Below, one piece after another: positions 3,995-64,000 of a DNA stretch of 64,000 bases (position 1 is its first letter; each line of letters begins with the position of its first letter). A program made the translations under genes and the position numbers. This DNA is from Patescibacteria group bacterium. GTDB taxonomy: Bacteria > Patescibacteriota > Patescibacteriia > JAXHNJ01. The notes under the pieces are model-generated. The model was not told the DNA's origin and did no database searches. It saw only the letters and a list, made by a program, of their open reading frames with translations. The DNA lies in the NCBI GenBank assembly GCA_034520665.1, contig JAXHNJ010000002.1:608660-672659 (forward strand), written 5' to 3'.

Positions 3995-4120
3995 AGGGGT
4001 GGCTAGATCCGCCTTCGTCTTTCTGCTAGGCGACTTTGGCGAACAAGGTATTTTATTATTTTTTTATATTTAAGGTCAATAAAACTCGCCATTAAATGTA
4101 TTAAAAAAGACGCAAAGGGG
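3995..4120. repeat. direct repeat aaaggggtggctaga (3995-4010 and 4106-4120) within a GC-rich structured intergenic island
   Basis: Identical 15-mer twice, about 110 nt apart, in a GC-rich patch of an AT-rich genome; hairpins gccccgcggagcggggc and gccaaaggc-agatgc-gcctttggc nearby. Confidence 0.6.
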
Positions 4121-4215
4121 TGGCTAGAGGCCCCGCGGAGCGGGGCAAGGAATTTCAGCCAAAGGCAGATGCGCCTTTGGCGCAGAACCCTCGTCACCCC
4201 GCACCATGATTCATT
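4100..4215 (+). ncRNA. candidate small SRP RNA (4.5S-like) or other structured GC-rich RNA
   Basis: Segment GGAAUUUCAGCCAAAGGCAGAUG closely resembles the conserved domain-IV strand of bacterial 4.5S RNA (GGAAGCAGCCAAGGCAGAUG, from memory); flanking ggggtg...cacccc can close a long hairpin; ends not determinable by eye. Confidence 0.25.
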
Positions 4216-4320
4216 TCATTCATCAGCTTAAGAGATAAAGCTCCCTTGTCATAGTTCGGGGCAAGCTGGTGCCACTTTGGTTTGTTAAAGAAAAAGATTT
4301 TTAATTTTGAGAGATTCAGA

Positions 4321-4395
4321 GGGGTGACCTACGGGAATCGAACCCGTATCACTGGTGCCACAGACCAGTGCACTAACCGTTGTGCTAAGGTCACC
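4321..4395 (-). tRNA. tRNA-His (anticodon GTG) with G-1
   Basis: Reverse complement folds as G-1 + GTGACCT acceptor / TA / GCAC-AACGGTTA-GTGC D-arm / CTGGT-CTGTGGC-ACCAG anticodon arm (GTG) / TGAT / ACGGG-TTCGATT-CCCGT T-arm / AGGTCAC + C73 pairing G-1. Confidence 0.8.
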
Positions 4396-4511
4396 CCTCT
4401 GAATCACTTTATTATTATATATTTATAAAAAATATTATGATTATTTTTCAATCTTCTTTGGCAAGTAAGCCAATAACCACTGCTTGCCCTGAGCGGAGTC
4501 GAAGGGTGCTA

Positions 4512-4622
4512 TAGCCATTCCTTTGCGTCCTATATTTATATATTTTTTAAAGAATTTATTAAAATGATGCACCCCGCCCGACTCGCTTCGCTGTTTTGAA
4601 GCGGGCCATTCCTTTGCGTCCT
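4512..4622. repeat. direct repeat gccattcctttgcgtcct (4512-4530 and 4604-4622)
   Basis: Two identical 18-mers about 90 nt apart between tRNA-His and the downstream gene; adjacent motif caccccgcccgactcgc recurs at 5367-5386 (inverted) and 5270-5288. Confidence 0.6.
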
Positions 4623-4628
4623 GTTTTT

Positions 4629-5213
4629 TTAAATATTTGTTTTTCTTTCTTTATTTTTATAAATTTGCGAAATTTTTTTAGGAATTTCTTCTGGCAGATT
4701 ATTATGATCGGGATTATCTTTTTCATAAAGATTAGCTTCATATAAATCTTCGGCCAGGTTTCTCAAACCATACAAAACCGAAACCATGGCTTCGTTAAGA
4801 ATTTCCATACCTTCTTTATTTTCAACTTTAATATTAGCAGCGTCTTTTTCAATAGCTTCTGACTCTTCGGCTAGATTAATCAAAAAATTTTCAGTATTTT
4901 TTGCTTCCTCTTCTGGCAGAGTAGTTAAGTACGATCTTAATTTTTCAAATATCTGAGCAGTAATGTCTTTAAAAGTTTTACTTCTTTCAACTAATAATTT
5001 TTTATCTATAACTTCTTCAGTATTAAATTCTCTCTGGGCTATTCGGGAAATATCAGTATAGATTTTTATTAGTTCCTTAGCCTTGGGCTCCAATTTTTCA
5101 CTTTTTTCTTTAACAAAATTATAAAGCTCTTCATCTTTTTCATCAATTTTTTCCAGAGTATTTTCAACAGCTGATAATTGGTTTAAAAAATTTTCGGATG
5201 ATTTTTCTTTCAT
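4629..5213 (-). CDS. hypothetical acidic coiled-coil-like protein
   Basis: ORF-track frame 4629..5246; likely true start MKEKSSENF at 5213 because the upstream extension overlaps the tRNA fragment. Confidence 0.45.
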   Translation of the reverse strand: MKEKSSENFLNQLSAVENTLEKIDEKDEELYNFVKEKSEKLEPKAKELIKIYTDISRIAQREFNTEEVIDKKLLVERSKTFKDITAQIFEKLRSYLTTLPEEEAKNTENFLINLAEESEAIEKDAANIKVENKEGMEILNEAMVSVLYGLRNLAEDLYEANLYEKDNPDHNNLPEEIPKKISQIYKNKERKTNI

Positions 5214-5231
5214 ATAATTATTATTATTTTC

Positions 5232-5291
5232 TGGTGCCCCAGGCACGATTCGAACGTGCGACCTACTGCTTACCCGCCCGCCTGACTCGTC
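5232..5291 (-). other. tRNA 3'-half fragment (variable loop, T-arm, acceptor 3' strand and encoded CCA) with no contiguous 5' half
   Basis: Reverse complement ...AGGTC GCACG TTCGAAT CGTGC CTGGGGC A CCA; the matching 5' strand GCCCCTG TA GTTC AACGGATAGAC lies about 180 nt away at 5471-5500. Confidence 0.5.
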
Positions 5292-5366
5292 TGGTGTCCC
5301 CAGTAGGAATCGAACCTACATCTAGGGCTTAGAAGGCCCTCGTTCTATCCATTGAACTATAGGGAC
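5292..5366 (-). tRNA. tRNA-Arg (anticodon TCT)
   Basis: RC = GTCCCTA TA GTTC AATGGATA GAAC G AGGGC CTTCTAA GCCCT AGATG TAGG TTCGATT CCTA CTGGGGAC A CCA; canonical cloverleaf, anticodon UCU. Confidence 0.85.
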
Positions 5367-5470
5367 GTCAGGCGAGTCGGGCGGGGAAGGCCGCTGTCCC
5401 GCCTGCCTTCGCCTTTGGCGACCAGCCCGACTTCGTATCGACGAAGTCGATGCGGGCGGGAGCCAATGGC

Positions 5471-5607: not shown

Positions 5608-6306
5608 TCAATGCTGACGAAATGATTCCGGGGTAATATTTTTGTTTATATTAGCCTTTTTTGTGTAGCGCTCGACCATTCTTTGAATGGAGCGGGCAGT
5701 TAAAGGGGGCAAGTCTTTTTTGGCGGCATGGTCATGACGAACAAATAAATATTTAGAATCATCTTTTCTTTTATCCAGATAATTTTTTAGAGCAAAAAGA
5801 GCTTGATTAGATAAATGAATTTTTTTATAAGCAAAATCATTTCTGGTCAAATTAGAAATTTCTGAAACTTTTAAATTAGTTGAGAGTAAAACTTCTAAAA
5901 GAGCCAGGTCGCGATATTTTATAATTAAGTGAGAGGACGTTTTTTTAACGGCTGAAAAGATTTGGTTGATTTCATTTTTTTCTAACAGCGGCTGATAGCT
6001 GGTTTGGTGTTTGAACAATTTTATTTCTTTATAATTAAGACTTTTAATATTATTTTTTTCTAAAAATTTTAAGAAATTACGCAGAGTGATTAAATAGTAA
6101 TTTTGCGTGTTTGTTAAATAGTTATTTTTTTCATGAGCTAAAAAGCCTTGGAACTTTCTTATAATAAGACGGTTTATTTCTTTGGGTCTTTTTACTTTGG
6201 TAATTTCTAGGAATTTTTCCAAACGTTGTTTATATTGATTAATAGTAGCGGAATAAATTCCTTTTTCTTTTAAATAATTTATGTATTGGTTAATATATTT
6301 ATCCAT
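5608..6306 (-). pseudogene. tyrosine recombinase (XerC/XerD/phage-integrase family), C-terminally truncated before the catalytic Tyr
   Basis: N-terminal SAM-like domain plus catalytic-domain motifs (RDLALLEVLLSTNLKVSEIS, LTARSIQRMV, ITPESFRQH = HxxR box), but the ORF stops right after the H of the LRH box; the expected ~35 residues carrying the catalytic tyrosine are absent. Confidence 0.6.
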
Positions 6307-17275: not shown

Positions 17276-18790
17276 ATGTCTACAAAAATTTATTCAGCCA
17301 GTATAATCGGCCTTGACTCGGTTTTAGTCGAGGTTGAGGCTGATATTAATAATGGTCTACCGCGTACTCATATAGTTGGTTTACCGGATAAGGCTTGTCA
17401 AGAAGCAGCTGAGAGAGTGCGTTCAGCGGTTAAAAACAGCGGTTTTTATTTTCCGGTGAGAAAATTAACAGTTAACCTGGCCCCGGCTGATGTCCGCAAA
17501 GAAGGGCCTTCCTTTGATTTATCTATGGCTATAGCCGTGCTTTGTATTTCCGGTCAGCTGGAAAAAGATTTAAGTCAATCAATTTTTATTGGTGAATTAT
17601 CTTTGGGCGGTGAATTAAGACCAGTTAACGGTATTTTGCCAGTAGTACAACTAGCAAGAAAAAAGAATATTAAAAATATTTTTTTACCGGAAAAAAACGC
17701 TAATGAAGCTTGTTTAGTGCCGGGGCCTAATATCTATCCTTGCCAAAGCCTGTATCAATTAATGCGTCACTTAAAGAAAAAAGAATTAATAAAAGCGCAC
17801 AAATATGTTCATAAGAAAAAAAATAAAATTGATAAATCTCGAGATATGGCTTTTATTAAGGGTCAGGAACACGCCAAGCGAGCTTTGGAAGTAGCGGCTG
17901 CTGGCCATCATAATATTCTAATGACTGGACCGCCGGGTTCTGGTAAAACTCTTTTGTCAAAATCCCTAACCACTATTTTACCGCAAATGAAGCTGGATAA
18001 CTCCCTGGAAGTAACCAAAATTTATTCAGTGGCTGGTATGGTTAAGTCAAATAACCCCTTAATTACTAAAAGGCCTTTTCGCTCGCCTCATCATACGGCT
18101 TCAGCCGCCTCCATCATCGGCGGTGGCCGTGTGCCCCGGCCGGGCGAGGTCTCTTTGGCCCACCGAGGAGTTTTATTTTTAGATGAGTTGCCGGAGTTTC
18201 AAAGGCAGGTTTTAGAAAGCCTGCGCCAGCCTTTAGAAGACGGGGAAGTAACAGTGGCCAGAGTTTCTGGCAGCATGACTTTTCCGGCGAATTTTATGCT
18301 AGTGGCGGCTTTGAACCCTTGTCCTTGCGGCTATTACTCTGATCCTTCTCATGAATGCACTTGTTCACCCTCTCAAATTATTCGCTATCGTAAAAAGATT
18401 TCCGGGCCATTGCTTGATCGGATTGATATTCATATTGAAGTGCCGCGACTCAAAACAGAAAAGATATTAAAAAAAGCTAAAGGTGAGTCTTCAGCGGCCA
18501 TTAAAAAAAGAGTAAAAAAAGCGCAAAGTACTCAGCGTCAAAGATTTAAAAAGATAAAGATAAAAAATAATTCAGAAATTCCAGCCCGCAATATTGACCA
18601 ATTTTGCTCTTTGAATGAAAAAGGTCGCCAACTAATAAAAAATTCCACTATTCAGCTTAATTTATCCGTGCGTTCTTACCATAAGGTTCTAAAAATTGCT
18701 CGTACTATTGCTGATTTAGATGTTTCAGAAAAGGTTGAAGTAAAGCATTTGGCCGAAGCCTTGCAGTACCGGCCTAAAATGGATAATTAA
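17276..18790 (+). CDS. comM: YifB/ComM-family Mg-chelatase-like AAA+ ATPase
   Basis: N-terminal Lon-protease-like S5 domain, Walker A GPPGSGKT, ChlI-type AAA core, C-terminal Mg-chelatase domain. Confidence 0.9.
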   Translation: MSTKIYSASIIGLDSVLVEVEADINNGLPRTHIVGLPDKACQEAAERVRSAVKNSGFYFPVRKLTVNLAPADVRKEGPSFDLSMAIAVLCISGQLEKDLSQSIFIGELSLGGELRPVNGILPVVQLARKKNIKNIFLPEKNANEACLVPGPNIYPCQSLYQLMRHLKKKELIKAHKYVHKKKNKIDKSRDMAFIKGQEHAKRALEVAAAGHHNILMTGPPGSGKTLLSKSLTTILPQMKLDNSLEVTKIYSVAGMVKSNNPLITKRPFRSPHHTASAASIIGGGRVPRPGEVSLAHRGVLFLDELPEFQRQVLESLRQPLEDGEVTVARVSGSMTFPANFMLVAALNPCPCGYYSDPSHECTCSPSQIIRYRKKISGPLLDRIDIHIEVPRLKTEKILKKAKGESSAAIKKRVKKAQSTQRQRFKKIKIKNNSEIPARNIDQFCSLNEKGRQLIKNSTIQLNLSVRSYHKVLKIARTIADLDVSEKVEVKHLAEALQYRPKMDN

Positions 18791-21075: not shown

Positions 21076-21167
21076 AATTTTTGATATTGAAGCTTTTAAA
21101 AAGACCCTTAGTTTTTAGGCGCCTTTTTTTATTATTATAATTATTATAAAATTAATTTATGAATAAA

Positions 21168-21285
21168 GAAAAAAAATAAGATTGATAAATCTCGAGATAC
21201 GGCTTTTATTAAAGGCCAAGAACACGCCAAGCGAGCTTTGGAGGTAGCGGCGGCTGGGCATCACAATATTCTTAAGTTATGAACA
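21168..21285 (+). repeat. duplicated fragment of comM (about 90% identical to 17811-17930), ending in a stop
   Basis: ataaagaaaaaaaataagattgataaatctcgagatacggcttttattaaaggccaagaacacgccaagcgagctttggaggtagcggcggctgggcatcacaatattct aligns base-for-base with comM codons KIDKSRDMAFIKGQEHAKRALEVAAAGHHNIL. Confidence 0.8.
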
Positions 21286-21581: not shown

Positions 21582-22439
21582 ATGAATGAAGCTAAATTAA
21601 AAGGAATAATTTATTTATTAATCATTGCCTATATCGGTAGTGGCGTGGGTGTTGGTTTTTTTTGGTGTGCTTCACAATTTAATTCTGAAGTAAATAATTA
21701 TAAAATAGTACACAATAAACCATCTGTACCGGATGAAGAAATTATAAAGAATTTTGTAAAAGAAGATGTCACACAGCCTGCGCCGACACCTACTCCTGAA
21801 TCAGTGTCAGAACCAGAACCGACTCCTGAACCAGAACCAACTCCTGAACCAGAACCGACTCCTGAACCAGAACCGACTCCTGAACCAGAACCGACTCCTG
21901 AACCAGAACCGACTCCTGAACCAGAACCGACTCCTGAACCAGAGTCAACTTCTGAATCAGAACCAACTCCTGAACCAGAGTCAACTCCTGAACCAGAAGC
22001 AACTCCTGAAAACAACTATACCTTTGATGATTATTTCCCAATTATTTTGTCTCTTTGTGATTCTGATGGAAATTGTTATACACGATCGGAAAAAAATGAA
22101 AGTAAAGAGCCATGGTCTGGTAATTGTTTTGAATATACACTTAAGGCTGGGGATGAAATTAACTTAAAGGTTGAAGCAAGTGACCCTAAAAATAGGCCAT
22201 TATTATATGATTGGTGGTGTGGTACTTGTGGTTCAACGCATCCTGAGCTCAAACCCAATACAGAAGTAATATGGACAACAAATAAAGAACTTAGGTATAC
22301 AATAACTGATGAAGATATACAAAATAGTGGTGAAAGTATTAGAATTGGCGTTTATATTAAATCAGAAAAAGAATATTACAGAACAGGTATACATGGTTAT
22401 GATGATGGAATTTATAATGATTTTAAAACATCATTCTAA
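21582..22439 (+). CDS. membrane-anchored or secreted protein with (PEPEPT)n linker and Cys-containing C-terminal domain
   Basis: N-terminal hydrophobic segment; about 14 tandem [12 protein letters not shown] units; C-terminal domain with [16 protein letters not shown]. Confidence 0.55.
21823..21965 (+). repeat. 18-bp tandem DNA repeat (cctgaaccagaaccgact)n encoding PEPEPT
   Basis: Near-perfect head-to-tail copies visible in the sequence. Confidence 0.8.
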
Positions 22440-45061: not shown

Positions 45062-48000
45062 ATGCTATTTAACTTAAAAAACAAAAAAGTTAAATACACT
45101 CTAACCAGTCTCAGCCTTGTTTTTATACTGGTGTCTTTTGGTATTTTCTGGCCCCAGGCCGCTAACGCTGGAGCGGTTGAACTTTTTACCGAATTACTTG
45201 GTCATCTGCTTTATGAGGTGGCTGGGCTTTTAGGTAAAATTTTAGTGGCTGTTATCCAGATGTTGATTGCTATTGTGCAATATAATGATTTTGGCCAGGC
45301 CACAGCCGTGCAAAAAGGCTGGGTGATTATTCGCGATGTTTGTAATATGTTTTTTGTAGCCGTGCTTTTGATGATTGCTTTTGGCACCATATTTAAATGG
45401 GAAACCTACCGCTATAATAAGCTTTTGGGCCGATTTATTTTGATGGCTTTTTTGATTAATTTTTCCAAGTTTATTGCTTTATTTTTAATTGATGTTTCCC
45501 AGGTAATTATGATGACTTTTGTTAATGCTTTTTCCGATATTGCGGCTGGTAATTTAATCTCAGCTTTTGGACTGGAGGAAATGTTCAAATTTATGGAAAG
45601 CGGCGGGCAGGATTTAGAATTTTCCGGCGTAATCGGAGCTCTACTTCTAGCTATTATACTCTTAACCATAGCGGTAGTTACTGTTTTGGTACTTACTATG
45701 GTTTTACTCATGAGAATACTGGTTTTATGGCTGTTAATCGTTCTCTCTCCTCTGGCTTATTTTCTGCGTACTTGGCCGGGCTCGGGCGAGAAAGCCTCTT
45801 CTATGTGGTGGAAGGAATTTGGTAAAAATTTAATTAACGGTCCTTTAATTGCTTTTTTCTTATGGCTTTCTTTGAGTATTATTTCTACCTCTGGTGGCGA
45901 CAAATTAGCCCAAGAAGAACTTAACTATGGCGACCGTAAAATTACCACTGAACAGGCTATTGAATACGAAGAGGACACTGGTATGCAGGACCTTGGCGCA
46001 TCGGTGGGGGGTAAATTTTACACGACCATTAGTAATATTTCTTCTTCAGATCGGCTGCTTAGTTTTATTATTTCCATTTCTCTGCTTATGGGTTCTTTAT
46101 TGGTAGCCCAAAAAATGTCCTCGGCCGGCGGACAAGCGGCTGGCACGGTTTTGGGCAAGGTGAAAACCGGTCTGACTAAAGCCGCTAAACTGGGAGCGGC
46201 TGGAGTGACTTTTGGAGCTGGAAGAACAGGACTTGGTTTACTGGCTCGCACTAAACCGGTTAAAAGAGCAGCTAAGGGCGTAGGTAAGTGGGCTTTGGGA
46301 GAAACTATGGCTAGGACCGGTTTTGAATTGCGTCCCTCTGAATGGGGGAAGGGTATTGAAAGAGGTGGCGAAAGGAAGTTACAAGAACGCGAAGACAGAA
46401 TGAGGGCTAAGTCCCAAAAAAGAAGAGAAAAAGGTTATCATTTGGCAGCCTCTTTAAGTAATCCCGAACACGCTTTTTATGAATATTGGCGTTTGTCAAC
46501 ACCTGGAAAAATGTTAAGGCACCCCCTTCAATTTTTTGGCAAAGGTACAAAAAAAATGCACGACGCTTCTTTAGAGCAAAAAGCTAAATTAGATAAGATC
46601 AAAGAACGCGATAGTGAAGTATACGATGATGAAAAAGGAGAGTACAAGGATGTAACTAAAATTCAAGAAGAAAAGATGATCGAAAAAGAGAAAGAAAAAG
46701 TAATTAAAGAAAAAACTGAAGAAGTGGCACAAAAAAGAGAAGATTTAAAACCGGAAAAATCCTGGCCAGAACTAGAAAAAGAACTTAAAGCTGATGGCGC
46801 TACTGAAAATGACCTGGCTGAATTTAAGAAAGATTTTCAGACAGTTAATGAGGAATGGATGCGCTATGCTTCTGTCGGAGAGGTTATTAAAAATGAAAAA
46901 GGAAAAAAAATAGGTACGCAGAGGATAACTTTTGATGAAAAATGGGAGAAAATGAGAACGAGATTAGAAAAAAAGGGTTTAACTGATGAAGAAATTAAAG
47001 AAGAAGAAAAAAAGTTTAATAAAGAATGGAATAGAAACAAAGCAGAAAATATGTTAAATCCACATGAGCTGAATAAAGAAGCCAGAAAAAAATTTGAAGA
47101 CAAAAATTACAGTGATGGCGATTTAAGAAAGGCTTATTTTAATAATAAAGAAGAGGAAATAGAAAAACTAAAAAAAGAAAAAAATGAAATAAAAGATCCT
47201 GATTTTATAATGGAAGAAGACCAAAAGCAAAGAGAAAAAAAACTGCAAGCTATTAATGATGAGTTAAAAAAAATTGATAGGGATATTAAAGCAAAAGAAG
47301 AGGAAGGCAAGAAAAAGAATATAAAAATTGATCTTTCTAAAGAAAAGAATCTAAAAAAAGACCTAGAAAAAAGAAAAGAAGAAATAGAAAAGGCTCCTTT
47401 GAGTGATAAAGAGAAAGAAAGAAAAGAAAATAAAATAAATGAGATAAATGAGAAAATTGAAAATAAAGAATTCGAAAAAGATTTTACTGATATGACGGAA
47501 ATAGATAGACGGGAATTATTAAGGCAGCGCGAAGCCCAGAAAAAGGAATATGAAAAGGCTAGAAAAAAAGAAATTGATAGAATGCCGGCTATTGATTACT
47601 CGACCCGTAAAAATCAGCGTTTGGCTATTCAGAAAGAAAAAAATGAATTGACCACTGACAGTTGGCAGGAAATTGCCAGTTTTATTGAAGACGCTAAGAA
47701 AAAAAATAATTTAACTCGGGTGGCGGCCGGTTATCTTAAGGCGGCTGAATATGGCAATGAAAACGAAATACAAAATTATTATGGTTATGATAGTGATGCT
47801 AAAGGGTTAAAACAATTTGTCATGGGTGAATTAGTCGGTGAAAAAGGTTTGGGCAAGAATTTTAGAGAAGAAACAGAAAAAGCCGGTTTATCTTGGGAAA
47901 GTTACATTGATAAATTTGGTCATTATGTTGAGGGTATGAAGGGTAAAAAGGGGATGGGCATGTCTATGGAACAAGCCTTGAGTATAGCTAACGATGTTTC

Positions 48001-48508
48001 TTATACAGCTGAAAGAATGAATCACTGGGGGGCGGCCCGGGCTGTAGGCGTACAAGACGGCCGACAAGTTTGGCAAAAAGAAAAAGATCGTTTAACCGAA
48101 GTAATGGCTGAGGTGAGAAAACTTGATTTTGAAAATACTATGAGAAGATTTAACCGATTAGCTTTTGGCTCAGAAAGAATTAAAGATAAATGGGATTTCC
48201 GTGGTGGAGGCGGAAGAGATTTTATGATGAATGATTTTGCCTTGGCTTTTATGATGGAAAACTGGAAAAAGTTTCCCACACTTTTAGAGCGGGGACGTTT
48301 TGGGGTTAACTTGGCTATTAATTTAAGTAAAGAAAATAATATTGATCTTCTTCAAGAATTATCCACAGAAATACCGGCTGAAGAAAGAGATCGTTATTTA
48401 AAAGTTGTTGATGGTATACAAAATTTTGCGGCTACTGGTGGAGAAAGCGAATTTGATGATTTAGAAAGAATGCATCAAAGAAATTTGGGAGGATGGGAAA
48501 ATTATTAA
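45062..48508 (+). CDS. VirB6/TrbL-like polytopic membrane protein with a long (~800 aa) charged coiled-coil cytoplasmic extension
   Basis: Signal/TM then 6-7 TM helices in the first ~350 aa (…VAVLLMIAFGTIF…ILMAFLINFSKFIALFLIDVSQVIMMTFVNAFSDIAAG…) as in TrbL/VirB6; remainder K/E-rich heptad-like; 2 nt after the previous gene. Confidence 0.5.
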   Translation: MLFNLKNKKVKYTLTSLSLVFILVSFGIFWPQAANAGAVELFTELLGHLLYEVAGLLGKILVAVIQMLIAIVQYNDFGQATAVQKGWVIIRDVCNMFFVAVLLMIAFGTIFKWETYRYNKLLGRFILMAFLINFSKFIALFLIDVSQVIMMTFVNAFSDIAAGNLISAFGLEEMFKFMESGGQDLEFSGVIGALLLAIILLTIAVVTVLVLTMVLLMRILVLWLLIVLSPLAYFLRTWPGSGEKASSMWWKEFGKNLINGPLIAFFLWLSLSIISTSGGDKLAQEELNYGDRKITTEQAIEYEEDTGMQDLGASVGGKFYTTISNISSSDRLLSFIISISLLMGSLLVAQKMSSAGGQAAGTVLGKVKTGLTKAAKLGAAGVTFGAGRTGLGLLARTKPVKRAAKGVGKWALGETMARTGFELRPSEWGKGIERGGERKLQEREDRMRAKSQKRREKGYHLAASLSNPEHAFYEYWRLSTPGKMLRHPLQFFGKGTKKMHDASLEQKAKLDKIKERDSEVYDDEKGEYKDVTKIQEEKMIEKEKEKVIKEKTEEVAQKREDLKPEKSWPELEKELKADGATENDLAEFKKDFQTVNEEWMRYASVGEVIKNEKGKKIGTQRITFDEKWEKMRTRLEKKGLTDEEIKEEEKKFNKEWNRNKAENMLNPHELNKEARKKFEDKNYSDGDLRKAYFNNKEEEIEKLKKEKNEIKDPDFIMEEDQKQREKKLQAINDELKKIDRDIKAKEEEGKKKNIKIDLSKEKNLKKDLEKRKEEIEKAPLSDKEKERKENKINEINEKIENKEFEKDFTDMTEIDRRELLRQREAQKKEYEKARKKEIDRMPAIDYSTRKNQRLAIQKEKNELTTDSWQEIASFIEDAKKKNNLTRVAAGYLKAAEYGNENEIQNYYGYDSDAKGLKQFVMGELVGEKGLGKNFREETEKAGLSWESYIDKFGHYVEGMKGKKGMGMSMEQALSIANDVSYTAERMNHWGAARAVGVQDGRQVWQKEKDRLTEVMAEVRKLDFENTMRRFNRLAFGSERIKDKWDFRGGGGRDFMMNDFALAFMMENWKKFPTLLERGRFGVNLAINLSKENNIDLLQELSTEIPAEERDRYLKVVDGIQNFAATGGESEFDDLERMHQRNLGGWENY

Positions 48509-50038: not shown

Positions 50039-50347
50039 ATGCGTTTTACTCTAAATAAAAATAATATCCGTCTAAATACACCGACTTTACTCAAGAAGTG
50101 TGGTTATCATTATACGGGTATGTTTCGGGGTGAGCCTGGTTTTGCTCGGCGGGCCGGGAGAAGCCGCTATCCCCAGTTTCATATTTATGTTAATGAAGAG
50201 AGTCAGGATAAATTGGTTTTAAATTTACATCTGGACGCTAAAAAGGCCAGCTATGCTGGCAGCAAAATGCACGCCGGGGAGTATGATACCGAGGTTGTGA
50301 AACAGGAGATTCAAAGAATAGACGATATTATTAATAATCTTTCATGA
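50039..50347 (+). CDS. hypothetical protein
   Basis: 102-aa ORF. Confidence 0.35.
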   Translation: MRFTLNKNNIRLNTPTLLKKCGYHYTGMFRGEPGFARRAGRSRYPQFHIYVNEESQDKLVLNLHLDAKKASYAGSKMHAGEYDTEVVKQEIQRIDDIINNLS

Positions 50348-50680
50348 AAAAATATAATCTTAAGAACCAAGTTCATTTCATCACTATTAATACATATAAA
50401 AAATACTGGCTTTTTAAGAAAGAAAATCTTTGCCAAATAGTAATTGATAATCTAAATTTTTACCGCCGTAAATTTAGTTTTAAATTATTGGGTTACGTAA
50501 TTATGCCTAATCATCTACATTTATTAATTCAATTAAATAAAAAATATAATGATATTTCAAAGGTAATGAGGGATTTTAAGAAATTTACAAGTGTTCAAAT
50601 TATAAAGCAGTTAATAAAAGAAAATGAAAAAGATTTACTTAAAACATTTTCTATGACTGGTAAAATTTTTAATTATCCCT
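50344..50680 (+). mobile_element. IS200/IS605-family (HUH, Y1) transposase or RAYT-like remnant, truncated
   Basis: HFITINTYKKYW...LLGYVIMPNHLHLLIQ (HuH motif) ...ISKVMRDFKKFTS; the C-terminal catalytic-Tyr region is not recognisable; reading frame runs in-frame through REP-like palindromes into nnr. Confidence 0.6.
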
Positions 50681-50870
50681 CTACTCTGGGTACTGCCCGA
50701 TCCTCAGATCGGGCTAGTCTCTCGGCCGAATCTGAGGATTCGGCCTACCCGACTAGTTTTAGAAAGAAAAGAAAATATTCAGTCTGGATGAATGATTTTT
50801 ACGACTTTAACATCTATTCCGAGAATCTTCTACTCTGGGTACTGCCCGATCCTCAGATCGGGCTAGTCTC
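50681..50870. repeat. REP/BIME-like palindromic repeats (41-bp direct repeat at 50681-50721 and 50830-50870, plus inverted variant 50724-50747)
   Basis: ctactctgggtactgcccgatcctcagatcgggctagtctc occurs twice; core hairpin gcccgatc-ctca-gatcgggc; between them ggccgaatc-tgag-gattcggcc is the same palindrome type in inverted loop orientation. Confidence 0.75.
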
Positions 50871-50886
50871 TAAAAAATTTATCTAT

Positions 50887-51672
50887 ATGAAAAAAATAAA
50901 TAAATTAATTTTTAAAAAACTCTATCAACCACCCAAAAATTCCCACAAAGGCGACAACGGTGTTTTATTGATTTTAGCCGGTTCAAAAAAGTACCACGGG
51001 GCTCCTTGGTATGCTATTGAAGCGGCTTCAAAAATTGTTGATTTGATTTATTTTCATTCAGATCCAATGGCTATGCGCTTAATGGAAGAAATAAAAAAGA
51101 AAACTCCGTCTTTCATTGTAGTCAGTAAAAAAGAATTATCGAAAACAATTCAAAAATCAGATTGTCTTTTAATTGGTCCGGGTTGGGGTAAAAATGAAGC
51201 TAATAAAAAATTAATAAATAATTTATTAAAAAAGCATAAAAATAAAAAATTCGTTTTAGATGCTGATGCTCTGGCTTTAGTTAATTTAAAGCAGTTAAAT
51301 AAAAATATTCTGATTACTCCCCACAGCAGCGAGTTTAAAAAATTATTTAACATAAAAGCCAATCAGGAAAATCTCAAAAAAATGGCTAAAAAGTATCGGG
51401 TCAATATATTATTAAAAGGAAAAAAAGATATTATTTGCTCGCCCCAGGCATGTTTTTTCAATACTCGAGGTAATCAAGGTATGACCAAAGGCGGCACCGG
51501 TGATGTTCTGGCCGGTTTAATTAGCGCTTTGGCTTGTAAAAATGATTTATTAACCGCCACTAAAGCTGGCTGTTTAGTTAATGGCTTAGCCGGAGATAAA
51601 TTATATAAAAAATACAAAGTTTATTATAACGCTCGGGATTTGATTAAAGAAATACCTAAAATTTTAAAATAA
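50887..51672 (+). CDS. nnr: ADP-dependent NAD(P)H-hydrate dehydratase (YjeF C-terminal domain)
   Basis: HKGDNGVLLILAGSKKYHGAPWYA, LIGPGWG, VLDADAL, GGTGDVLAGLI motifs; probable own ATG at 50887 although the ORF track fuses it to the transposase remnant. Confidence 0.8.
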   Translation: MKKINKLIFKKLYQPPKNSHKGDNGVLLILAGSKKYHGAPWYAIEAASKIVDLIYFHSDPMAMRLMEEIKKKTPSFIVVSKKELSKTIQKSDCLLIGPGWGKNEANKKLINNLLKKHKNKKFVLDADALALVNLKQLNKNILITPHSSEFKKLFNIKANQENLKKMAKKYRVNILLKGKKDIICSPQACFFNTRGNQGMTKGGTGDVLAGLISALACKNDLLTATKAGCLVNGLAGDKLYKKYKVYYNARDLIKEIPKILK

Positions 51673-52818: not shown

Positions 52819-54597
52819 ATGACGGAGGGAAAATCCATACAACTGATAAGTGAAGAAGATTTATTTGAAGAAATTCAAACTAATCTCTTAGAATTAATTT
52901 CCGACAGTGATTTTGTTTTAGAGTTTAAGCTAAGGCTTATTTCCTGGCTTCCCTCAGACCGCCAGAAATTTATTAATCAAATAGTTGAAGCTCTTAAAAA
53001 TAATAATCAGTCAGTCGGTACTTTTATGGTTTCAGCCGAAGGCCATAAAATGCCCCCAACTGTTTCTAACTGGCTTAAAGACTTTGAACAAAGTGTTGGT
53101 GAGAATTTTAATCAAAAAAAGAAAGAGGAATATCTTAATTCCCCAGAATTTAAAAAGATAGAACTGGGACCGAGAACACTGCTGCAAAATCTTTTTGAAT
53201 TTTATGAATTAATAAAGTCTTTTCAAAAAGAACCGGAAAAAGTGGAAAAAATGATGGTGCGTGATAAAAAAGGCAATCTTCATGTTATGGATAGAGGAGA
53301 GTTATATGATTTAGAGAAAAAAACTTCATCTTTAGAAAAAGAAAAAGAATCTGACGTGGCTTTTACTTCTGATCCCGTTCCCGATAGATTTTCGGCGGAT
53401 AAAAAATCTACAGCCGATAAGTCTATTTCTTCTAAAGCTACGGTGGATCCGGAAGAAAAAAAGAAAATTAAGCCAGAGGAACCATATGAAAAGAAAAAGC
53501 AAGAATTTCCTAAAGAAAAAGCGACTAAAATTGAAGAAAAGCCTAAAAAAGAGGAAAGCCAACCAGAGGCCAAAAAACCAGAAAAACCGATTGCTTCTTC
53601 CTATATGTATCCTGAGGATGAAGAAGAAATCAGGGCTCAAAAAGATAATCTGTCCTCATATTCTCTGCCTAATATGGTTACATCTAATTCGGTTATTAAG
53701 GAAATAATTGAAAAGAATAATATTAATTTTTCGGATGATAATTTAGAAAAAAGATTTAAATCAATTTGCATTTCATATTTTAAAGGTATCCGCAATGAAA
53801 GAAGAACTAAAGATTTATTAATGCGCTCCACTAAAGTGGGAGGCCTGAATTATTCTGAAGATACAGCTCAAAATATTATTGAAATTCTGGAAAAAAATAA
53901 GGATAAAATTGATAAAATTCCACACGAGGAAGAAAAAAAAGAAGTAAAACAGAAAGTACCTACTCCCAGAGAAGCTTTAGAAAAAGCTATGGCTGATAAA
54001 GAAGTTATAAAGAGTAAAGAAGATATTAAAGCAGAAAAACCAGCCACTGAACAAAAAAGACCCGAACTCAAAAAAAGCAAAAATATTAAACCAAAATTTA
54101 AAGAAGAAAAAAGAAAAAAAACAAAAGAGGAAGAAAAAAAAGAGCCTATTTTACCAAAGACAGAATTATCACCAAAAACTGAAAAAAAGAAAGATATTAA
54201 AGTTGCCCGGCCAACCTCATCAGTCCGTGGAAAGAGGAAAATTGAAGATATAAAAGGTAAAACTAAATTACTGGGTCCTATTGATGAATTAAAGGAAATG
54301 AATCTTCGTGATTTTTCAAGATTGGGCTCTGATAAAAACAGTGCGGCTCAGAAAATTTATGAAAAATTAAATTTATTAAAGGAAGATTCTTTTTCAAAAT
54401 ATTCGAAAGGTGTTAAAGCGTGGCGGGAATCTGAAATTTATAATTTATATCTTGAAATGGGCCGTCAGAGTATGGAAAACCAAAAAACTATTCGGGAAAT
54501 AATTGAACAAAGAAAAAAAGAAAATCAGCCCTATTTAAGTGAACAACAATTTAACGAAATTGTTGATTTAAATAAAAAATTAAGCTTTAGTTTATGA
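52819..54597 (+). CDS. hypothetical K/E-rich protein
   Basis: 592 aa, highly charged low-complexity centre; 2 nt after the previous gene. Confidence 0.45.
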   Translation: MTEGKSIQLISEEDLFEEIQTNLLELISDSDFVLEFKLRLISWLPSDRQKFINQIVEALKNNNQSVGTFMVSAEGHKMPPTVSNWLKDFEQSVGENFNQKKKEEYLNSPEFKKIELGPRTLLQNLFEFYELIKSFQKEPEKVEKMMVRDKKGNLHVMDRGELYDLEKKTSSLEKEKESDVAFTSDPVPDRFSADKKSTADKSISSKATVDPEEKKKIKPEEPYEKKKQEFPKEKATKIEEKPKKEESQPEAKKPEKPIASSYMYPEDEEEIRAQKDNLSSYSLPNMVTSNSVIKEIIEKNNINFSDDNLEKRFKSICISYFKGIRNERRTKDLLMRSTKVGGLNYSEDTAQNIIEILEKNKDKIDKIPHEEEKKEVKQKVPTPREALEKAMADKEVIKSKEDIKAEKPATEQKRPELKKSKNIKPKFKEEKRKKTKEEEKKEPILPKTELSPKTEKKKDIKVARPTSSVRGKRKIEDIKGKTKLLGPIDELKEMNLRDFSRLGSDKNSAAQKIYEKLNLLKEDSFSKYSKGVKAWRESEIYNLYLEMGRQSMENQKTIREIIEQRKKENQPYLSEQQFNEIVDLNKKLSFSL

Positions 54598-59029: not shown

Positions 59030-60300
59030 TATTTTTTTACTCTTTCCTTTTATAATACTTTAGCTCAAGAAGGAGGCGTCAGCGAACGAAATCCGGAGAA
59101 AAAGGAAATACCAGTAAGATTTGAAAATACCAAAAATCGACTAAAACCCTGTGATGAAAACGGGAAAATTTGCTGGTAGTTACTGTGCTCAATAACTTTG
59201 GCGAATTGCTGTGTCAGTTTTTCTGACGGGTTTGCTGGAGCAGTGTGTTTGCCGCTGTCATGATTGTCTTTGCTGGTTTGAAATCGATTACTGCAGCGGC
59301 AATGTCCACCAAAATAGAAAAAGCCAAAGCCACTTTAAACGGCGCTTTAATAGGTCTGGTTTTAACCTTAGGGGCTTTTGTTTTACTTGATCTAGCCCGG
59401 CCTTGGTCCGCTTTAAACTTTTGCCCTTGATCTAATATATCAAAAAATGTTTTAGATACTTTTTATTGCAGGGTCTACAAATCGAGATAGATAGATCACA
59501 CCACATTTTGCTTGCTGGTACAAGTTATGGTATTCCTAAAAGTGTCCAGGATGAAGTGGGTTATAATAAATATTATTGTTGTGGTAGTGTCTGTAGTGAC
59601 TGTTTGATGAGGAGGGTAACCCACGAATTTGCGCTAATGATGTAACTATGGTGGGTGAAGATTGTCCTTCTTTATTGTTCTGACCCACAAAAATCATGTG
59701 AGGAAGCTAATAAAGATGAGCGTCAGAAAATTGAACTCGACATATTGGAAAAAAATAAAATAACTGATTATAAATGTAGTAAGGATAGACCGGTATTTCC
59801 TCCGACTCCTGTGCTTATGTTGAAAATAGTAGAAAATCCTTGTGAAGGAAATTGGAAAAGAATAAATTGTAGTTTTAAAGGTAGAATATTCTGGAGAAGT
59901 AGAAACAGCTTGTTGGGATAGAGTGGAAGGATTATTGTACAACGATGAAAGAGTATAGATATCGATAATGGTGTTGCGTTTTATTGAAAGAAAATACATT
60001 TTTTGCCAAGAAGAGTTATGTATGGAGATGTTTGAAGAAAAGATATTATACAGATAGATTGCTATAATAGTTGTATAATACAATGGAGAAAGTTATACAG
60101 TATGTCAGGGACGACTATGGAAAATTGTAGTTCAATATTACGCACTAATTTATTGTGGAAAAAATTTAAAGATAAAAAGTAAATATTATTAATAGGAACC
60201 TAAGTTAAAAAGAAATTCACCACTTTATGTGGAGAAAATCCTTGTGGATCAAGTACATCTGCCAGTGCGCCAATGGATATTTGGCTGTATGGATGTTAAC
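59030..60300 (+). pseudogene. degraded copy (a) of the pilin-like/Cys-rich gene family (d-type paralog)
   Basis: Multiple frameshifts; fragments LAQEGG..., FGELL..., MFAAVMIVFAGLKSITAAAMSTKIEKAKATLNGALIGLVLTLGAFVLL (ORF 59245..59430), CEEANKDE...ILEKNKITDYKCSKDRP...IVENPCEGNWKRINCSFKG (ORF 59655..59921) and LCGENPCGSSTSASA align to the minus-strand copy at 62840-64000. Confidence 0.6.
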
Positions 60301-60339
60301 TTATATGTTAAAAAAATACAATTTTTCCTAATTTAAATA

Positions 60340-61470
60340 CAAGATGAAAAATAGCTAAATAATTTTTACCCATCAATTTTCCGTTTTGTTATTTATTCAG
60401 ATTTTTAGTCAGGAAGAAGGAGCTGATACAGAAGTGGTTAAAAGGATATTAGAGTCTACAAATTCCTGGTTAACCAAAAAAATGTATCCCATACTTCGAC
60501 CCGCTGATTATTGTGTCAATAACTTTGGCCATCACACTATAGAATTTCACCAGCTCGCAGCGGCGCACCCCCTTTGCCGGCACTGCCAGTGCACGCCACT
60601 CGAAAAGTGAGAAAAAGCCAAACTTGATTTTAAACGGCGCTTTAATGGGTTCGCTTTAGGGCTTTCGTTTTACTTACACTTACCCCAGCCTCTGGTCCAA
60701 CTTTTGCCCTTGTCTAATATATCAAAAAATGTTTTAGATAATTTCATTGCAAAAATAATTCCCGCATAACTCAATATAGTTACCCATATTTTGCTTGTGG
60801 GCAAGATACTATATTCCTAAAAGTGTCAATATAAAAAAGCAGTTATGGTAATTCATATTGTCGTAGTGAATGCGATTCCGACTGTAAGAAAATAACTTTG
60901 GGGAGAACGGCAAAAAATTGAAAAGGATTGTCCTTTTAAAATTGTTGAATCTTATATTTATGCGATGAAGCTGATGATGAAAAAATGCGAAGGATGCTGT
61001 TATCGGCTAAAAAATCAGGAAATAAAATCAAGCTGCCGTAGTAATTACAAGGGTTTTGGAAATAATGGACTGCCGAATTTTCAAAAACACGTGGTACGAG
61101 GATAACCTAATATTTGAAGTTACCTTTTACAAGATTGATGGAAAAGTTGTGAAAGAAGTTACTGATATAAGAATAGATTGTGAGTGGTGGTACCAAATGC
61201 TTGACTCTGATAATAATAAATCACAAGATAATTTATAATTCTGACAAAATTTTTGTACTATTTTTGTATAGCTCAATACTATTTGTCGTATGAAAAAAAA
61301 AAAAAACAGTAAATTGATTGTTGATCTGGAATGGTTATAGTAAAAAATGAATTTGAGACGCGCGACACCTATATAATCTGAATTTACCACACGAAATACC
61401 AGGTGGCGGCGAGGATTGTTGATTGATATGAATGTCTTTGCTTCAGTCATCATATCAACTATCTTCATTA
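60340..61470 (+). pseudogene. degraded copy (b) of the pilin-like/Cys-rich gene family (c-type paralog)
   Basis: Broken signal peptide; SQEEGADTEVVKRI...ADYCVNNFGHH... (ORF 60386..60610); degenerate IEKAKATLNGAL segment; ...CDEADDEK...; EVTDIRIDCE (ORF 61056..61238); in-frame stops and frameshifts throughout. Confidence 0.6.
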
Positions 61471-61655
61471 AAATTCTTTATATCGTCAAATTATTAGCTG
61501 TATTTAGATATAAAAAAATATTTCTCGAATAATTTGACGATATAATCAAGTAAAATTTTAATGAAGATAAGGTCCGAGCACAACAAATATGATCAGCTGG
61601 ACAAAAACATTCATTATTATCAATACAAGCAAGATCCTCGCCGCCACCTTGGTAT
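61393..61655. repeat. 24-bp inverted repeat gaaataccaggtggcggcgaggat (61393-61416) / atcctcgccgccaccttggtatttc (61631-61655) at the convergent 3' ends of paralogs b and c
   Basis: Near-perfect inverted match (one extra a in the right copy) visible directly; part of a longer stretch of inverted homology between the 3' ends of the plus- and minus-strand copies. Confidence 0.8.
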
Positions 61656-62743
61656 TTCATATCATTAAATTCCGGGCTATTATAGGTGTCACAGTCTACC
61701 TCAATTTCATTTTTACTATCACATTTCCCAGGATCCCGACAATCAATTTCTGTTTTTAAGGCTTTCATACAACAAATAGTGTCAGCTTCTACGTTAGCCC
61801 GGGAATCACTGCTACAAAAAATTTTGCTAGGAGCTATGAGATATCTTGGTTCATTATTATCAGAGTCCCAACATTGGGTACCGCCACGTTCACAATCTAT
61901 TCTTATATCAGTAACTTCTTCACAGACTTTTTCAGTCAACTCATCTTGTAAAAGATTAACTTCAAATATTCCATTACTACTAGTACCACGTATTTTTGCA
62001 AAACGGCAGTCCATATTCCCAAAACCCTTATTAATTCTACGGCAGCTTGATTTTATTTCTGGATTTTTAGCAATAACAGCATCCACTTCTTGGCATTTTT
62101 CATCATCAGCTTCATCGCATAAATCCTTGGGGTCAAAACAATTTAAAGGACAATCCTTTTTAGAAGTAACGTCATTGGCGCAAATTTTTGGTTCTCCGGA
62201 TTTAGTTTCTACAGTCGGATCACATTCACTACCACAACAATATGATTCACCATAAGCTGCTTTATCCTGGGCACTTTTAGGAATATCATATCTTGTACCA
62301 CAAGCAAAATATGGGTAACTATCTATTGATTCTTTATCCGGGAAATCTTTGCAATAAAAAGTATCTAAAACATTTTTTGATATATTAGACAAGGGCAAAA
62401 GTTTAAAGCGGACCAAGGCTGGGTTAATAGTATTAAGTAAAACAAAAGCCCCTAAGGTTAAAACCAGACCCATTAAAGCGCCGTTTAAAGTGGCTTTGGC
62501 TTTTTCTATTTTGGTGGCATTGCCGCTGGCAGTAATCCACTGGAAACCAGCAAAGACAATCATGACAGCGGCAAAGATACCGGCCGCTCGAGCAAACCAT
62601 TGGTAAAACTGTATAATATAATCGCCAAAGTTATTGACACAATAATCACAGGTAGAGGTATTACAATCGGGATCACATTTTTTGGTTAAGCCGGGAATTT
62701 GTAAATTTACTTTAATCTGTTTTTCACCCAACTTCTGTATCAC
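61478..62743 (-). CDS. VirB2/TrbC-pilin-like protein fused to a ~300-aa Cys-rich C-terminal domain (paralog c)
   Basis: ...DYCVNNFGDYIIQFYQW then two hydrophobic helices separated by TASGNATKIEKAKATLNG (TrbC/VirB2 topology), then about 40 Cys in CxC/CC clusters; start is GTG; the signal peptide lies upstream in another frame. Confidence 0.65.
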   Translation of the reverse strand: MIQKLGEKQIKVNLQIPGLTKKCDPDCNTSTCDYCVNNFGDYIIQFYQWFARAAGIFAAVMIVFAGFQWITASGNATKIEKAKATLNGALMGLVLTLGAFVLLNTINPALVRFKLLPLSNISKNVLDTFYCKDFPDKESIDSYPYFACGTRYDIPKSAQDKAAYGESYCCGSECDPTVETKSGEPKICANDVTSKKDCPLNCFDPKDLCDEADDEKCQEVDAVIAKNPEIKSSCRRINKGFGNMDCRFAKIRGTSSNGIFEVNLLQDELTEKVCEEVTDIRIDCERGGTQCWDSDNNEPRYLIAPSKIFCSSDSRANVEADTICCMKALKTEIDCRDPGKCDSKNEIEVDCDTYNSPEFNDMKYQGGGEDLACIDNNECFCPADHICCARTLSSLKFYLIISSNYSRNIFLYLNTANNLTI

Positions 62744-62835
62744 TTCCTTCTTCCTGAGCTAAAACTTGCCCTGAATAAAATAACAAAACGGAAAAAATTG
62801 ATAGGATTAAGATTATTTTAGCTATTTTTTTCATC
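62726..62835 (-). CDS. signal-peptide exon of paralog c (MKKIAKIILILSIFSVLLFYSGQVLAQEEGSDTEVG*), separated from the main ORF by a -1/+1 frameshift
   Basis: ATG at 62833-62835 (minus), typical signal peptide, stop after 36 codons overlapping the GTG start of 61478..62743; homolog 60386.. reads through (SQEEGADTEVVKRI). Confidence 0.55.
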
Positions 62836-62839
62836 TTAT

Positions 62840-64000
62840 TATTTAATTAGGAAAAATATTATTTTCATTTTTAACATATAAGTTAACATCCATACAGCAA
62901 TGTCCATTAGGCACAATACTGCAATCAGTAGCACTGGCAGATGCACTTGATCCACAAGGATTTTCTCCACATAAAGCCGATAATGAGTAAAATTCTTTTT
63001 AATTTTGGGTTCATATTAATAATATTTACTTATATTTTAATTTTTCCACAATAAATTAGTGCGCATCCAACAATTTGAACTACAATTTTCAGTAGTGTTG
63101 TCGTAATAGGTACCTGACATACTATTATAACTTTCTCCATTGTCTAAAATATCACTATCACAATCTATCTGTATAATATCTTTTTCTTCCCAAACATCTC
63201 CCATACTCGAGTAAGGTTTTTCTTCTTGGCAAAATATATTTTCTTTAGGAAATAGAGCGCAACACCATTTATCAATATCTCCTACTCTTTCATCATTTGT
63301 ACAATAATCCCTTGGCTCATCTTTATCCCAACAAGCTGTTTCTACTTCTCCAGAATATTCTCCTTTAAAACTACAATTTATTCTTTTCCAATTTCCTTCA
63401 CAAGGATTTTCTACTATTTCAACATAAGCACAGGAGTCAAAGGAAAGACCGGGTCTATCCTTACTACATTTATAATCAGTTATTTTATTTTTTTCCAATA
63501 TGTCGTCAATTTTATAACACTCATCTTTATTAGCTTCCTCACATAATTTTTGTGGGTCAAAACAATTTAAAGGACAATCTTCACCCACCATAGTTACATC
63601 ATTAGCACAAATTTGTGGGTTACCCTCCTCATCAACATCACTACAGACACTACCACAACAATAAGATTCACCATAACCCACTTCATCCTGGACACTTTTA
63701 GGAATATCATAACTTGTACCACAAGCAAAATGTGGTATTATCTATCGATCTCGATCCGGAAACCCTGCAATAAAAGTATCTAAAACATTTTTTTATATAT
63801 TAGACAAGGCAAAAGTTTAAAGCGGACCAAGGCCGGGTTAATAGTATTAAGTAAAACAAAAGCCCCTAAGGTTAAAACCAGACCGATTAAAGCGCCGTTT
63901 AAAGTGGCTTTGGCTTTTTCTATTTTGGTGGCATTGCCGCTGGCAGTAATCCACTGGAAACCAGCAAAGACAATCATGACAGCGGCAAAGATACCGGCCG
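62840..64000 (-). pseudogene. paralog d of the pilin-like/Cys-rich family, frameshifted, running off the window
   Basis: ORFs 63037..63681 (Cys-rich domain) and 63780..63977 (MIVFAGFQWITASGNATKIEKAKATLNGALIGLVLTLGAFVLLNTINPALVRFKLLP) are separated by indels relative to paralog c; C-terminal ALCGENPCGSSASASATDCS... in a third frame at 62880-63000. Confidence 0.6.

Follow-up and report, generated by a model that had tools for sequence, protein, structure and literature searches.

Anatomy of the 442-aa reading frame

An uninterrupted open reading frame (ORF) of 442 aa was analyzed in a stretch of 64,000 nucleotides from a Patescibacteria group bacterium (assembly GCA_034520665.1, contig JAXHNJ010000002.1, positions 608,660 to 672,659); this whole stretch is called the window, and all coordinates without a contig name refer to it. 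The ORF occupies 50344-51672 on the + strand, its N-terminal part is that of a Y1/HUH transposase, and a complete NAD(P)HX dehydratase, the product of nnr, makes up its C-terminal part. The palindromes inside it resemble repetitive extragenic palindromes (REPs) in the paired layout of REP doublets forming hairpins (REPINs) or bacterial interspersed mosaic elements (BIMEs), and the transposase part belongs to the REP-associated tyrosine transposases (RAYTs), also named TnpA-REP. A first-pass annotation, made from the letters and an ORF list, had reported an open frame of 442 aa, and the ORF list confirmed it. The features of the locus were collected in Table 1.

Table 1. Features of the RAYT-nnr locus in window coordinates
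Feature	Position	Strand	Basis or content
102-aa conserved hypothetical gene	50039-50347	+	ORF list; stop overlaps RAYT start (ATGA)
RAYT (TnpA-REP-type Y1 HUH transposase) remnant, codons 1 to ~162	50344-50828	+	Pfam Y1_Tnp, NF047646, alignments, tblastn
H57-L58-H59 of HUH motif	50512-50520	+	
First copy of 43-bp repeat	50680-50722	+	8 nt coding flank, GGGTAC, hairpin 1, linker TAGTCTCT
Intragenic in-frame REP dimer (REPIN/BIME-like, 'double foot')	50688-50750	+	63 nt; sequence, repeats, folding z-scores
GGGTA foot of REP dimer	50688-50692	+	
Hairpin 1 of REP dimer	50695-50714	+	8-bp stem, then 8-9-nt linker
Hairpin 2 of REP dimer	50724-50745	+	9-bp stem
TACCC end of REP dimer	50746-50750	+	
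Conserved W148 of remnant	50785-50787	+	
Second copy of 43-bp repeat = half REP unit	50829-50871	+	GGGTAC 50837-50842, hairpin 50844-50863
AT-rich 15-nt leader between half REP and nnr start	50872-50886	+	in-frame read-through as KKFIY
nnr, stand-alone ADP-dependent NAD(P)H-hydrate dehydratase, 261 aa	50887-51672	+	TIGR00196, Pfam Carb_kinase

In the N-terminal part, Pfam Y1_Tnp matched aa 9-99 (profile 6-92 of 121, E 2e-9), and the HUH motif was N56-H57-L58-H59, in which H57 and H59 are invariant or nearly so across the alignments of relatives. The NCBIfam model NF047646 (REP_Tyr_transpos) gave 78 bits over profile positions 4-118 of 146, just under its cut-off of 80 bits, with the last 28 profile positions absent, and the intact orthologue P0002 reached 114 bits; for this reason the window copy is a truncated member of the RAYT / TnpA-REP family. 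Of the 'IS200/RAYT-like' remnant in the first-pass annotation, the RAYT assignment was retained and IS200 proper was dropped, since the IS200/IS605 model NF033573 scored 31.5 bits for the window part (31-34 bits when P0002 was included) at a cut-off of 55. The nearest intact relatives were P0002 (231 aa), P0003 (220 aa) and P0004 (209 aa), at 60-65% identity. The transposase part had been taken to cover about 110 codons, which was too short: homology resumed after the first hairpin pair with KKRKYSVWMNDFYDFNIYSENL and ended at about codon 162, the first base of the second repeat copy, and the tblastn match of the RAYT part extended over 50344-50823/50832.

Residues 170-216 of P0002 aligned without gaps with residues 92-138 of E. 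coli TnpA-REP (PDB 4ER8), in which Y115 corresponds to Y193 and the metal ligand N119 (PMC6006769) to N197. The window sequence diverged at residue 162, 7 residues before the catalytic Tyr, and the Tyr-equivalent position was D169, so the catalytic helix is gone, just as the first reading had reported no recognisable one. Both the Tyr and the Asn of the YIxxNP motif were kept in the orthologues P0002, P0003, P0004 and P0006; the motifs of relatives were NHVH, NHIH or NHLH, WQ or WM, and YIHNNP, YIHHNP or YIHFNP. As judged from this alignment, the remnant is predicted to be incapable of Tyr-dependent cleavage and joining. No second RAYT gene was detected in the window by tblastn.

Two direct repeats had been described as 41 bp long; both were present, and the exact length was 43 bp. 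With up to 3 mismatches allowed, the window contained no third copy, and 0/100 shuffles reached 2 matches. Each copy contains GGGTAC, one base, and then the palindrome GCCCGATC-CTCA-GATCGGGC, while the inverted-loop palindrome GGCCGAATC-TGAG-GATTCGGCC, followed by TACCC, lies between the copies. Hairpin 2 is GGGTAG plus hairpin when read on the - strand; hairpin 1 is GGGTAC, one nucleotide and hairpin. Both have 4-nt loops and their arms are 80% complementary to each other. The dimer is made up of two REP-like modules, each a GTAG or GTAC foot beside a hairpin, in inverted orientation, which is the REPIN/BIME layout, and it is translated within the ORF as GTARSSDRASLSAESEDSAYP. As single-stranded DNA the 73-nt unit folded at -22.5 kcal/mol on the + strand (z = -5.9 versus shuffles) and at -23.1 kcal/mol on the - strand (z = -6.6), and the half unit folded with z = -5.1; the GC content of the hairpin segment was 0.55, compared to about 0.2 in the flanks. 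The second repeat copy stands where RAYT homology ends, 15 bp upstream of the nnr ATG at 50887, and the 8 nt that open it are the counterpart of the coding flank in the first copy.

Three other identities were examined for these repeats and hairpins and ruled out. The CRISPR-DR9 family of Rfam reached only 15.6 bits against a gathering threshold of 45, and a CRISPR-like repeat would have to consist of two copies inside an ORF. For known structured RNAs, ribozymes and tRNA-like elements, the only Rfam matches at gathering thresholds were two tRNAs elsewhere in the window. There was no T-run after either hairpin and the terminator scan was negative there, which excluded an intrinsic terminator or attenuator.

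In the C-terminal part, Pfam Carb_kinase covered aa 208-439 of the ORF (E 9e-45), and TIGR00196 matched residues 11-260 of the 261 Nnr residues at 200.5 bits (cut-off 129.85). All seven of the closest Nnr homologues (245-265 aa) begin at the Met encoded at 50887, and the complete nnr with its own ATG proposed at first pass was thereby upheld. The domain architecture of Nnr was surveyed in the best-scoring 120 of 3042 matches, and no other protein among them combined PF01797 with PF01256; the long homologues carried the usual YjeF_N domain instead. Promoter-like sites numbered 10, compared to 9.0 +/- 2.3 expected by chance, none of them positioned to serve nnr, no Shine-Dalgarno-like sequence was visible before the ATG at 50887 or neighbouring starts, and the 15-nt leader had no promoter- or terminator-like site beyond chance. 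The NCBI record names the 442-aa product 'NAD(P)H-hydrate dehydratase' under two accessions on the same 698-kb contig; a better description would be a RAYT pseudogene whose frame continues into a normal nnr of 261 aa.

The REP dimer and the RAYT locus in relatives

The REP dimer is located in the surface loop between the HUH and Tyr motifs, after helix alphaC and before strand beta4 (W..FYD motif). At this protein position three stem types were recognised, type 1 in the window and in the related loci L001, L002, L082 and L083, type 2 in L084, L085 and L089, and type 3 in L017, L091 and the peptide GRRKPSLSPY..ASEGSHLP of P0008-P0014; L056 also carries a stem other than that of the window there. 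The first-pass annotation had regarded all palindromes as the junction between transposase and nnr, in one of its two alternatives as a translated linker. This view was revised, because the first pair is an in-frame insertion into the RAYT core that is also present in intact orthologues, and only the second half-unit marks the junction.

Conservation of the hairpins concerns their nucleotides. In the comparison of the window with L001, the codons around the unit shared about 70% identity; the stems hardly changed, and the loops and linker differed. Covariation was tested on 8 REP units with 500 shuffles and slid registers: 98.3% of cells were standard-paired, 7 pairs had changed on both sides, and 0/500 shuffles did as well in pairing, in the number of double changes or in covariation score, with pairing falling to 16-51% in slid registers. 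The first G of GGGTA occupies codon position 3 in type-1 units and position 2 in the type-2 units of L084 and L085. Because the units are read in different frames, the encoded loop peptides are wholly different, e.g. TLGTARSSDRASLSAESEDSAYP versus VQPEPLLGLSKGRSRGSDLP. In these alignments the kept feature is the DNA or RNA structure together with the GGGTA/TACCC feet, and not the peptide.

Further units were found 3' of the RAYT gene in relatives. L002 contains two 100% identical 63-nt units with exact GGGTA...TACCC ends, one intragenic and the other 3 bp past the RAYT stop, which form direct repeats 286 bp apart and bracket the Tyr-coding segment. Additional modules of foot and hairpin are found in the spacer that precedes nnr in L001; one of them, GGGTAC plus hairpin, lies 11 bp before the nnr ATG. 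The second repeat copy of the window occupies the place of this 3'-flank REP of relatives, 11-15 bp upstream of the nnr start.

A search for more REP copies, which had been put forward with the first-pass annotation, returned none elsewhere in the window, where foot-bearing GC-rich hairpins were confined to 50688-50863. A degenerate hairpin-1 pattern was also scanned against 185,579 species-representative genomes, and its 3 Patescibacteria matches all fell within two RAYT-like genes of the metagenome-assembled genome (MAG) GCA_043812155.1, the source of L001; in this related MAG the matches were intragenic only. A fourth match, in the non-Patescibacteria L088 (76% GC), was rejected as chance, with no RAYT nearby. 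Of the proposed REP/BIME architecture, the foot, the hairpin and the inverted units stood, and a dispersed genomic REP family was found neither in the 64-kb window nor in the one related MAG. Among metagenomic RAYT-like loci that are more distantly related, the classical arrangement with REP arrays beside the gene was seen; about 12 of these distant loci also had REP-like hairpins inside the same loop, and in L061 the intragenic hairpin was of the same family as the flanking REPs. GC-rich hairpins stood beside the RAYT gene in nearly all of the 79 related loci with a hairpin listed. REP arrays on both flanks were seen in L004, L008, L009, L018, L038, L061 and others, e.g. GTAGTTCGCATCCTCAGATGCGAAT in L009 and L018. 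At such metagenomic loci upstream ORF extensions sometimes run through the REP arrays, so the gene calls there are likely too long.

The surroundings of the gene are shared as well. In L001, L082, L089 and L091 the RAYT-like gene is immediately preceded by a 101-aa orthologue of the 102-aa gene, and the order is 101/102-aa gene, RAYT, nnr, and then PPDK_N or another gene. The 102-aa gene had no match in Pfam, NCBIfam or PHROGs, and may be a functional partner of the RAYT or only a syntenic neighbour. Judging by gene order, the synteny across 5 assemblies supports vertical inheritance of the RAYT. The state of the gene varied among these loci. It is intact and apart from nnr in L001, with a 165-bp spacer, and in L082, with overlapping stop and start; it is frameshifted in L089, at a G7A8 run directly after the REP dimer (L089 1238-1256); and in L091 the locus has several in-frame stops and no gene was called. 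L083, which has a LexA-like gene upstream, carries a 2-nt insertion in the CT linker (858-870), and its frame ends directly after the REP dimer; the dimer lies 12 bp before the nnr ATG, the RAYT being cut after the dimer and joined to nnr. These comparisons indicated that a vertically inherited gene has decayed independently several times, and that the window copy represents one of the resulting states.

The first lesions of L083 (CT-rich linker expansion) and L089 (G7A8) lie in or right beside the REP dimer, which suggests that the hairpin region is a mutational hot spot. Of the first 124 residues of the protein P0001, 123 are those of the window protein, and P0001 stops within the REP dimer; its NCBI accession number suggests that it comes from the same MAG as the window, and that MAG probably has three truncated RAYT copies. 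MAG GCA_043812155.1 has two RAYT paralogues. Both counts differ from the roughly single copy per genome that is typical of RAYT genes.

Additional observations were made on the neighbourhoods of relatives. A LexA-like gene stands immediately upstream of RAYT-like paralogues of two lineages (L002 1-493, L083 1-474, L084 407-1018); LexA_DNA_bind and Peptidase_S24 domains are on record for L084, and L002 and L083 were called by sequence similarity of the upstream ORF. This arrangement hints at a possible SOS-linked expression of these paralogues. On the L084 contig, which also carries the RAYT paralogue P0006, a gene at 5704-6105 matched 23S_rRNA_IVP and bAvd, and its predicted product may be similar to the accessory protein found in diversity-generating retroelements. 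Genes for PrgI-like, TraC-like and VirB4/TraG-like (AAA_10) proteins follow nnr and the PPDK_N-like gene in L001 (9400-10696) and L089 (4042-5316), and may represent a type IV secretion or conjugation-like cluster.

Origin of the read-through and other features of the window

The account that we consider probable, with good confidence, is that a vertically inherited RAYT decayed and was accidentally fused to nnr, which is the functional gene and has preserved its ancestral start at 50887. The ancestral locus would have consisted of the 102-aa gene, a full RAYT with the in-frame REP dimer, a 3'-flank REP 11-15 bp before nnr, and nnr. A rearrangement ending in the 3'-flank REP would then have removed about 45 last RAYT codons, with the catalytic Tyr and the metal-binding Asn, together with the stop, and the GC-rich, stop-free half REP and the 15-nt leader would happen to keep the frame, so that the remnant reads into nnr. 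This in-frame read-through is most simply chance, given a one-in-three frame and a stop-free GC-rich stretch. Nnr itself, we infer from its homologues, would be made from its own start at 50887.

The deletion may have arisen by REP-REP recombination, by hairpin-promoted slippage or template switching, or by RAYT-catalysed strand transfer. Products like L083 would be the direct outcome of recombination between the intragenic and the 3' units, because the two L002 units are exact direct repeats. In the window product 78 nt of coding sequence past the dimer were retained, and 8 nt of coding flank belong to its second copy; for this reason its junction would need one of two events, a tandem duplication of 149 bp with a subsequent REP-REP deletion or a template switch at the hairpin. 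A clean REP-REP crossover and a CT-site strand transfer were both considered, and neither reproduced the junction between GAGAATCT and TCTACTCT. The right end of the window repeat lies directly after CT, and the left junction is at odds with simple CT-site strand transfer. The two-step path of duplication and deletion fits the junction and is a candidate route.

Four points weigh against the account of a decayed RAYT accidentally fused to nnr. The 8 nt of coding flank and the half unit in the second copy are not explained by simple REP-REP recombination or REP transposition. The 181-codon remnant is still stop-free in DNA of 35% GC, and is either a very recent casualty or under some constraint. 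Neither a Shine-Dalgarno nor a promoter signal could be assigned to the internal start of nnr, and expression from it would follow from homology. Finally, the 442-aa product is on record twice in the 698-kb contig, so that either the fusion was copied or the assembly was duplicated.

A reading that goes further, and which we regard as possible though rather unlikely, holds that in these reduced Patescibacteria genomes the REP population has shrunk to the RAYT locus, with an in-frame dimer in the gene and one copy at the 3' end, and that direct repeats bracketing the Tyr segment provide a recurrent route of self-inactivation via deletion or frameshift. The catalytic module would be hit repeatedly, by recombination between REPs, by slippage that the hairpins induce or by the cleaving and joining activity of the enzyme itself. 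The first lesion lies at or beside the REP dimer in four decayed copies, namely the window, L083, L089 and P0001. Closely related proteins differ in the REP stem type at this site, an exchange which hints that REP turnover targeted to the loop continues.

That the REPINs are actively mobile, with the second 43-bp copy as a fresh product of RAYT-catalysed transposition or strand transfer that disrupted the gene, was considered improbable. The identical L002 units with their precise ends would suit such mobility, and so would the right end of the window repeat after CT, the type of site cut by TnpA-REP (PMC8266576). Different stem types at the same site in similar proteins and orthologous loci suggest turnover. 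However, the window copy is no more than half a unit together with 8 nt of coding flank, its left junction is unlike a CT-cleavage product, no copies were found outside RAYT loci in the window or in MAG GCA_043812155.1, and the RAYT copy at this locus has no Tyr.

Slightly less credit was given to a role of the hairpins mainly as RNA, in which they would stabilise the RAYT mRNA, mark a site for its processing or slow its translation so as to limit transposase expression. The compensatory changes in the stems are compatible with this, as are sense-strand G-U pairs (UG or GU in 4 cells) and a very stable fold of the sense-strand RNA (-34 to -48 kcal/mol), and Di Nocera et al. infer an RNA role of many REPs from G-T pairs (PMC3733652). 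But no Rfam family was matched, the GGGTA[CG] foot, which is conserved, and the layout as an inverted pair are features of DNA recognition by TnpA-REP (PMC8266576), and L002 and L001 have identical units beyond the ORF as well, in their 3' flanks. The RNA-level and DNA-level readings are compatible, and the one does not exclude the other.

A functional chimera, in which a DNA-hairpin-binding RAYT N-domain is joined to Nnr via REP-coded linker peptides, is very unlikely. It was one of two alternatives left by the first-pass annotation, the other being a dead RAYT with nnr keeping its own start, which is the better supported. The open frame, the single 442-aa protein annotated by NCBI and recorded twice, and the common tolerance of bacterial Nnr for an N-terminal domain, with YjeF_N fusions of about 450 aa in the same best 120 of 3042 matches, speak for a chimera. 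On the other side, no further Y1_Tnp+Carb_kinase protein occurred among those 120, the closest Nnr are stand-alone (245-272 aa) and start at the 50887 Met, orthologous loci have two separate genes, the catalytic Tyr is lost, and the exact 43-bp repeat indicates a recent accident. An assembly artefact behind the truncation, the repeat or both, which the MAG source and the mirrored accessions described below could reflect through fold-back misassembly, is hardly credible, because the 50828/50829 junction lies outside any repeat able to mis-join the graph, the 43-bp repeat and its 106-bp spacer fit inside single reads, and independent assemblies show analogous truncations at the REP (L083, L089, P0001).

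As to the rest of the window, the 102-aa, 442-aa and 314-aa proteins of the locus each have two NCBI accessions in mirrored order (MDZ7799048-50, MDZ7799069-71), which suggests that the 698-kb contig has an inverted duplication, or was misassembled by folding back, over a stretch that includes the locus and reaches beyond the window. An imperfect inverted repeat (77-100% identity, with indels) relates about 59.2-61.2 kb to 61.9-64.0 kb around a centre at about 61600 (59189-64000), and direct repeats with a period of about 1.4 kb were seen at 62.2-64.0 kb. A tandem array of an 18-nt unit at 21747-22034, with at least 11 overlapping 108-nt registers at 69-100% identity, presumably codes for a 6-residue repeat, and a 107-nt repeat (17813-17919 and 21166-21272, 92% identity) is found near it. 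A cluster of GC-rich hairpins in AT-rich DNA at 3254-5456 is explained in part by tRNA genes on the - strand (4323-4394, 5295-5366). Large repetitive charged proteins are encoded on either side of the locus, at 45062-48508 and 52819-54597.

Comparison with known systems

REPs in frame inside the tnpA-REP gene, and 'double foot' REPs, have been reported for TnpA-REP subclass 2.4 by Quentin, Siguier, Chandler and Fichant in 2018 (PMC6006769); this subclass is RAYT group 4 of Bertels et al. 2017. The window locus resembles it in having its REPs within the gene, placed between HuH and Tyr motifs, with the frame unbroken and a variable distance between the motifs (PMC6006769), and in the double foot (5' GT[AG]G, 3' C[TC]AC), the NH[IFV]H HuH motif and the YIxNNP-like Tyr motif of the relatives. 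It differs in its host, Patescibacteria being outside the phyla of PMC6006769, and in the truncation of the window copy. The variable insertion of subclass 2.4 lies between beta3 and alphaC (Table 1 of that paper), whereas here it lies between alphaC and beta4, and the 'SS' tail motif of the relatives (WSSYRNY) is assigned by the same table to other subclasses, e.g. 2.6, while subclass 2.4 has no tail domain. By motif comparison, NH[LVI]H, WQ/WM and YIH[NH]NP would fit subclass 2.4, and the insertion site and the 'SS' tail would also fit 2.6.

The E. coli TnpA-REP (RayT/YafM, PDB 4ER8) belongs to the same Y1 HUH fold family, and P0002 aligned with it at both core halves. TnpA-REP enzymes depend on a GTAG foot and cleave at CT dinucleotides on the 5' or 3' side of the REP (Corneloup et al. 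2021; PMC8266576), and substrate-like elements with a GTAG foot beside a hairpin are also present here. In contrast, the REPs of E. coli are extragenic, bulged and dispersed by the hundreds, and those described here are perfect 8-9-bp stems, intragenic and restricted to RAYT loci; the window protein, in addition, lacks the Tyr. The dimer agrees with REPINs and BIMEs (Bertels and Rainey 2011) in its two related inverted REPs with a short spacer, foldable as one structure closed by GGGTA/TACCC, and in the exact extra copies with precise ends in L002; it departs from them because the window units are in frame inside a gene, not extragenic, and no genome-wide population was seen in the window or in the scan of species representatives.

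Palindromic repeats translated in frame are not confined to RAYT genes. In-frame intragenic REPs have been catalogued in other genes (Di Nocera et al. 2013; PMC3733652), and the palindromic elements of Rickettsia (Ogata et al. 2000; Di Nocera et al. 2013) are likewise in frame in genes and translated as loop peptides; those elements occur in many unrelated genes and mostly with a CGTC tag in Rickettsia, while the host gene here is the cognate transposase. With the IS200/IS605 TnpA (subclass 1.1) the remnant shares the PF01797 domain and the HUH motif, but the Tyr motif of that group is Y---Q and the relatives of the window RAYT carry YIHxNP, and a RAYT gene syntenic across five assemblies does not suggest a mobile insertion sequence.

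The window feature thus belongs to an already described phenomenon, with no new mechanism. In-frame intragenic REPs in RAYT genes, which in 2018 were known mainly from Cyanobacteria and Bacteroidetes, are now extended to Patescibacteria, where one syntenic locus with intact, frameshifted, stop-ridden and deleted copies provides a small series in which the joint decay of domesticated RAYTs and their REPs in streamlined genomes could be followed.

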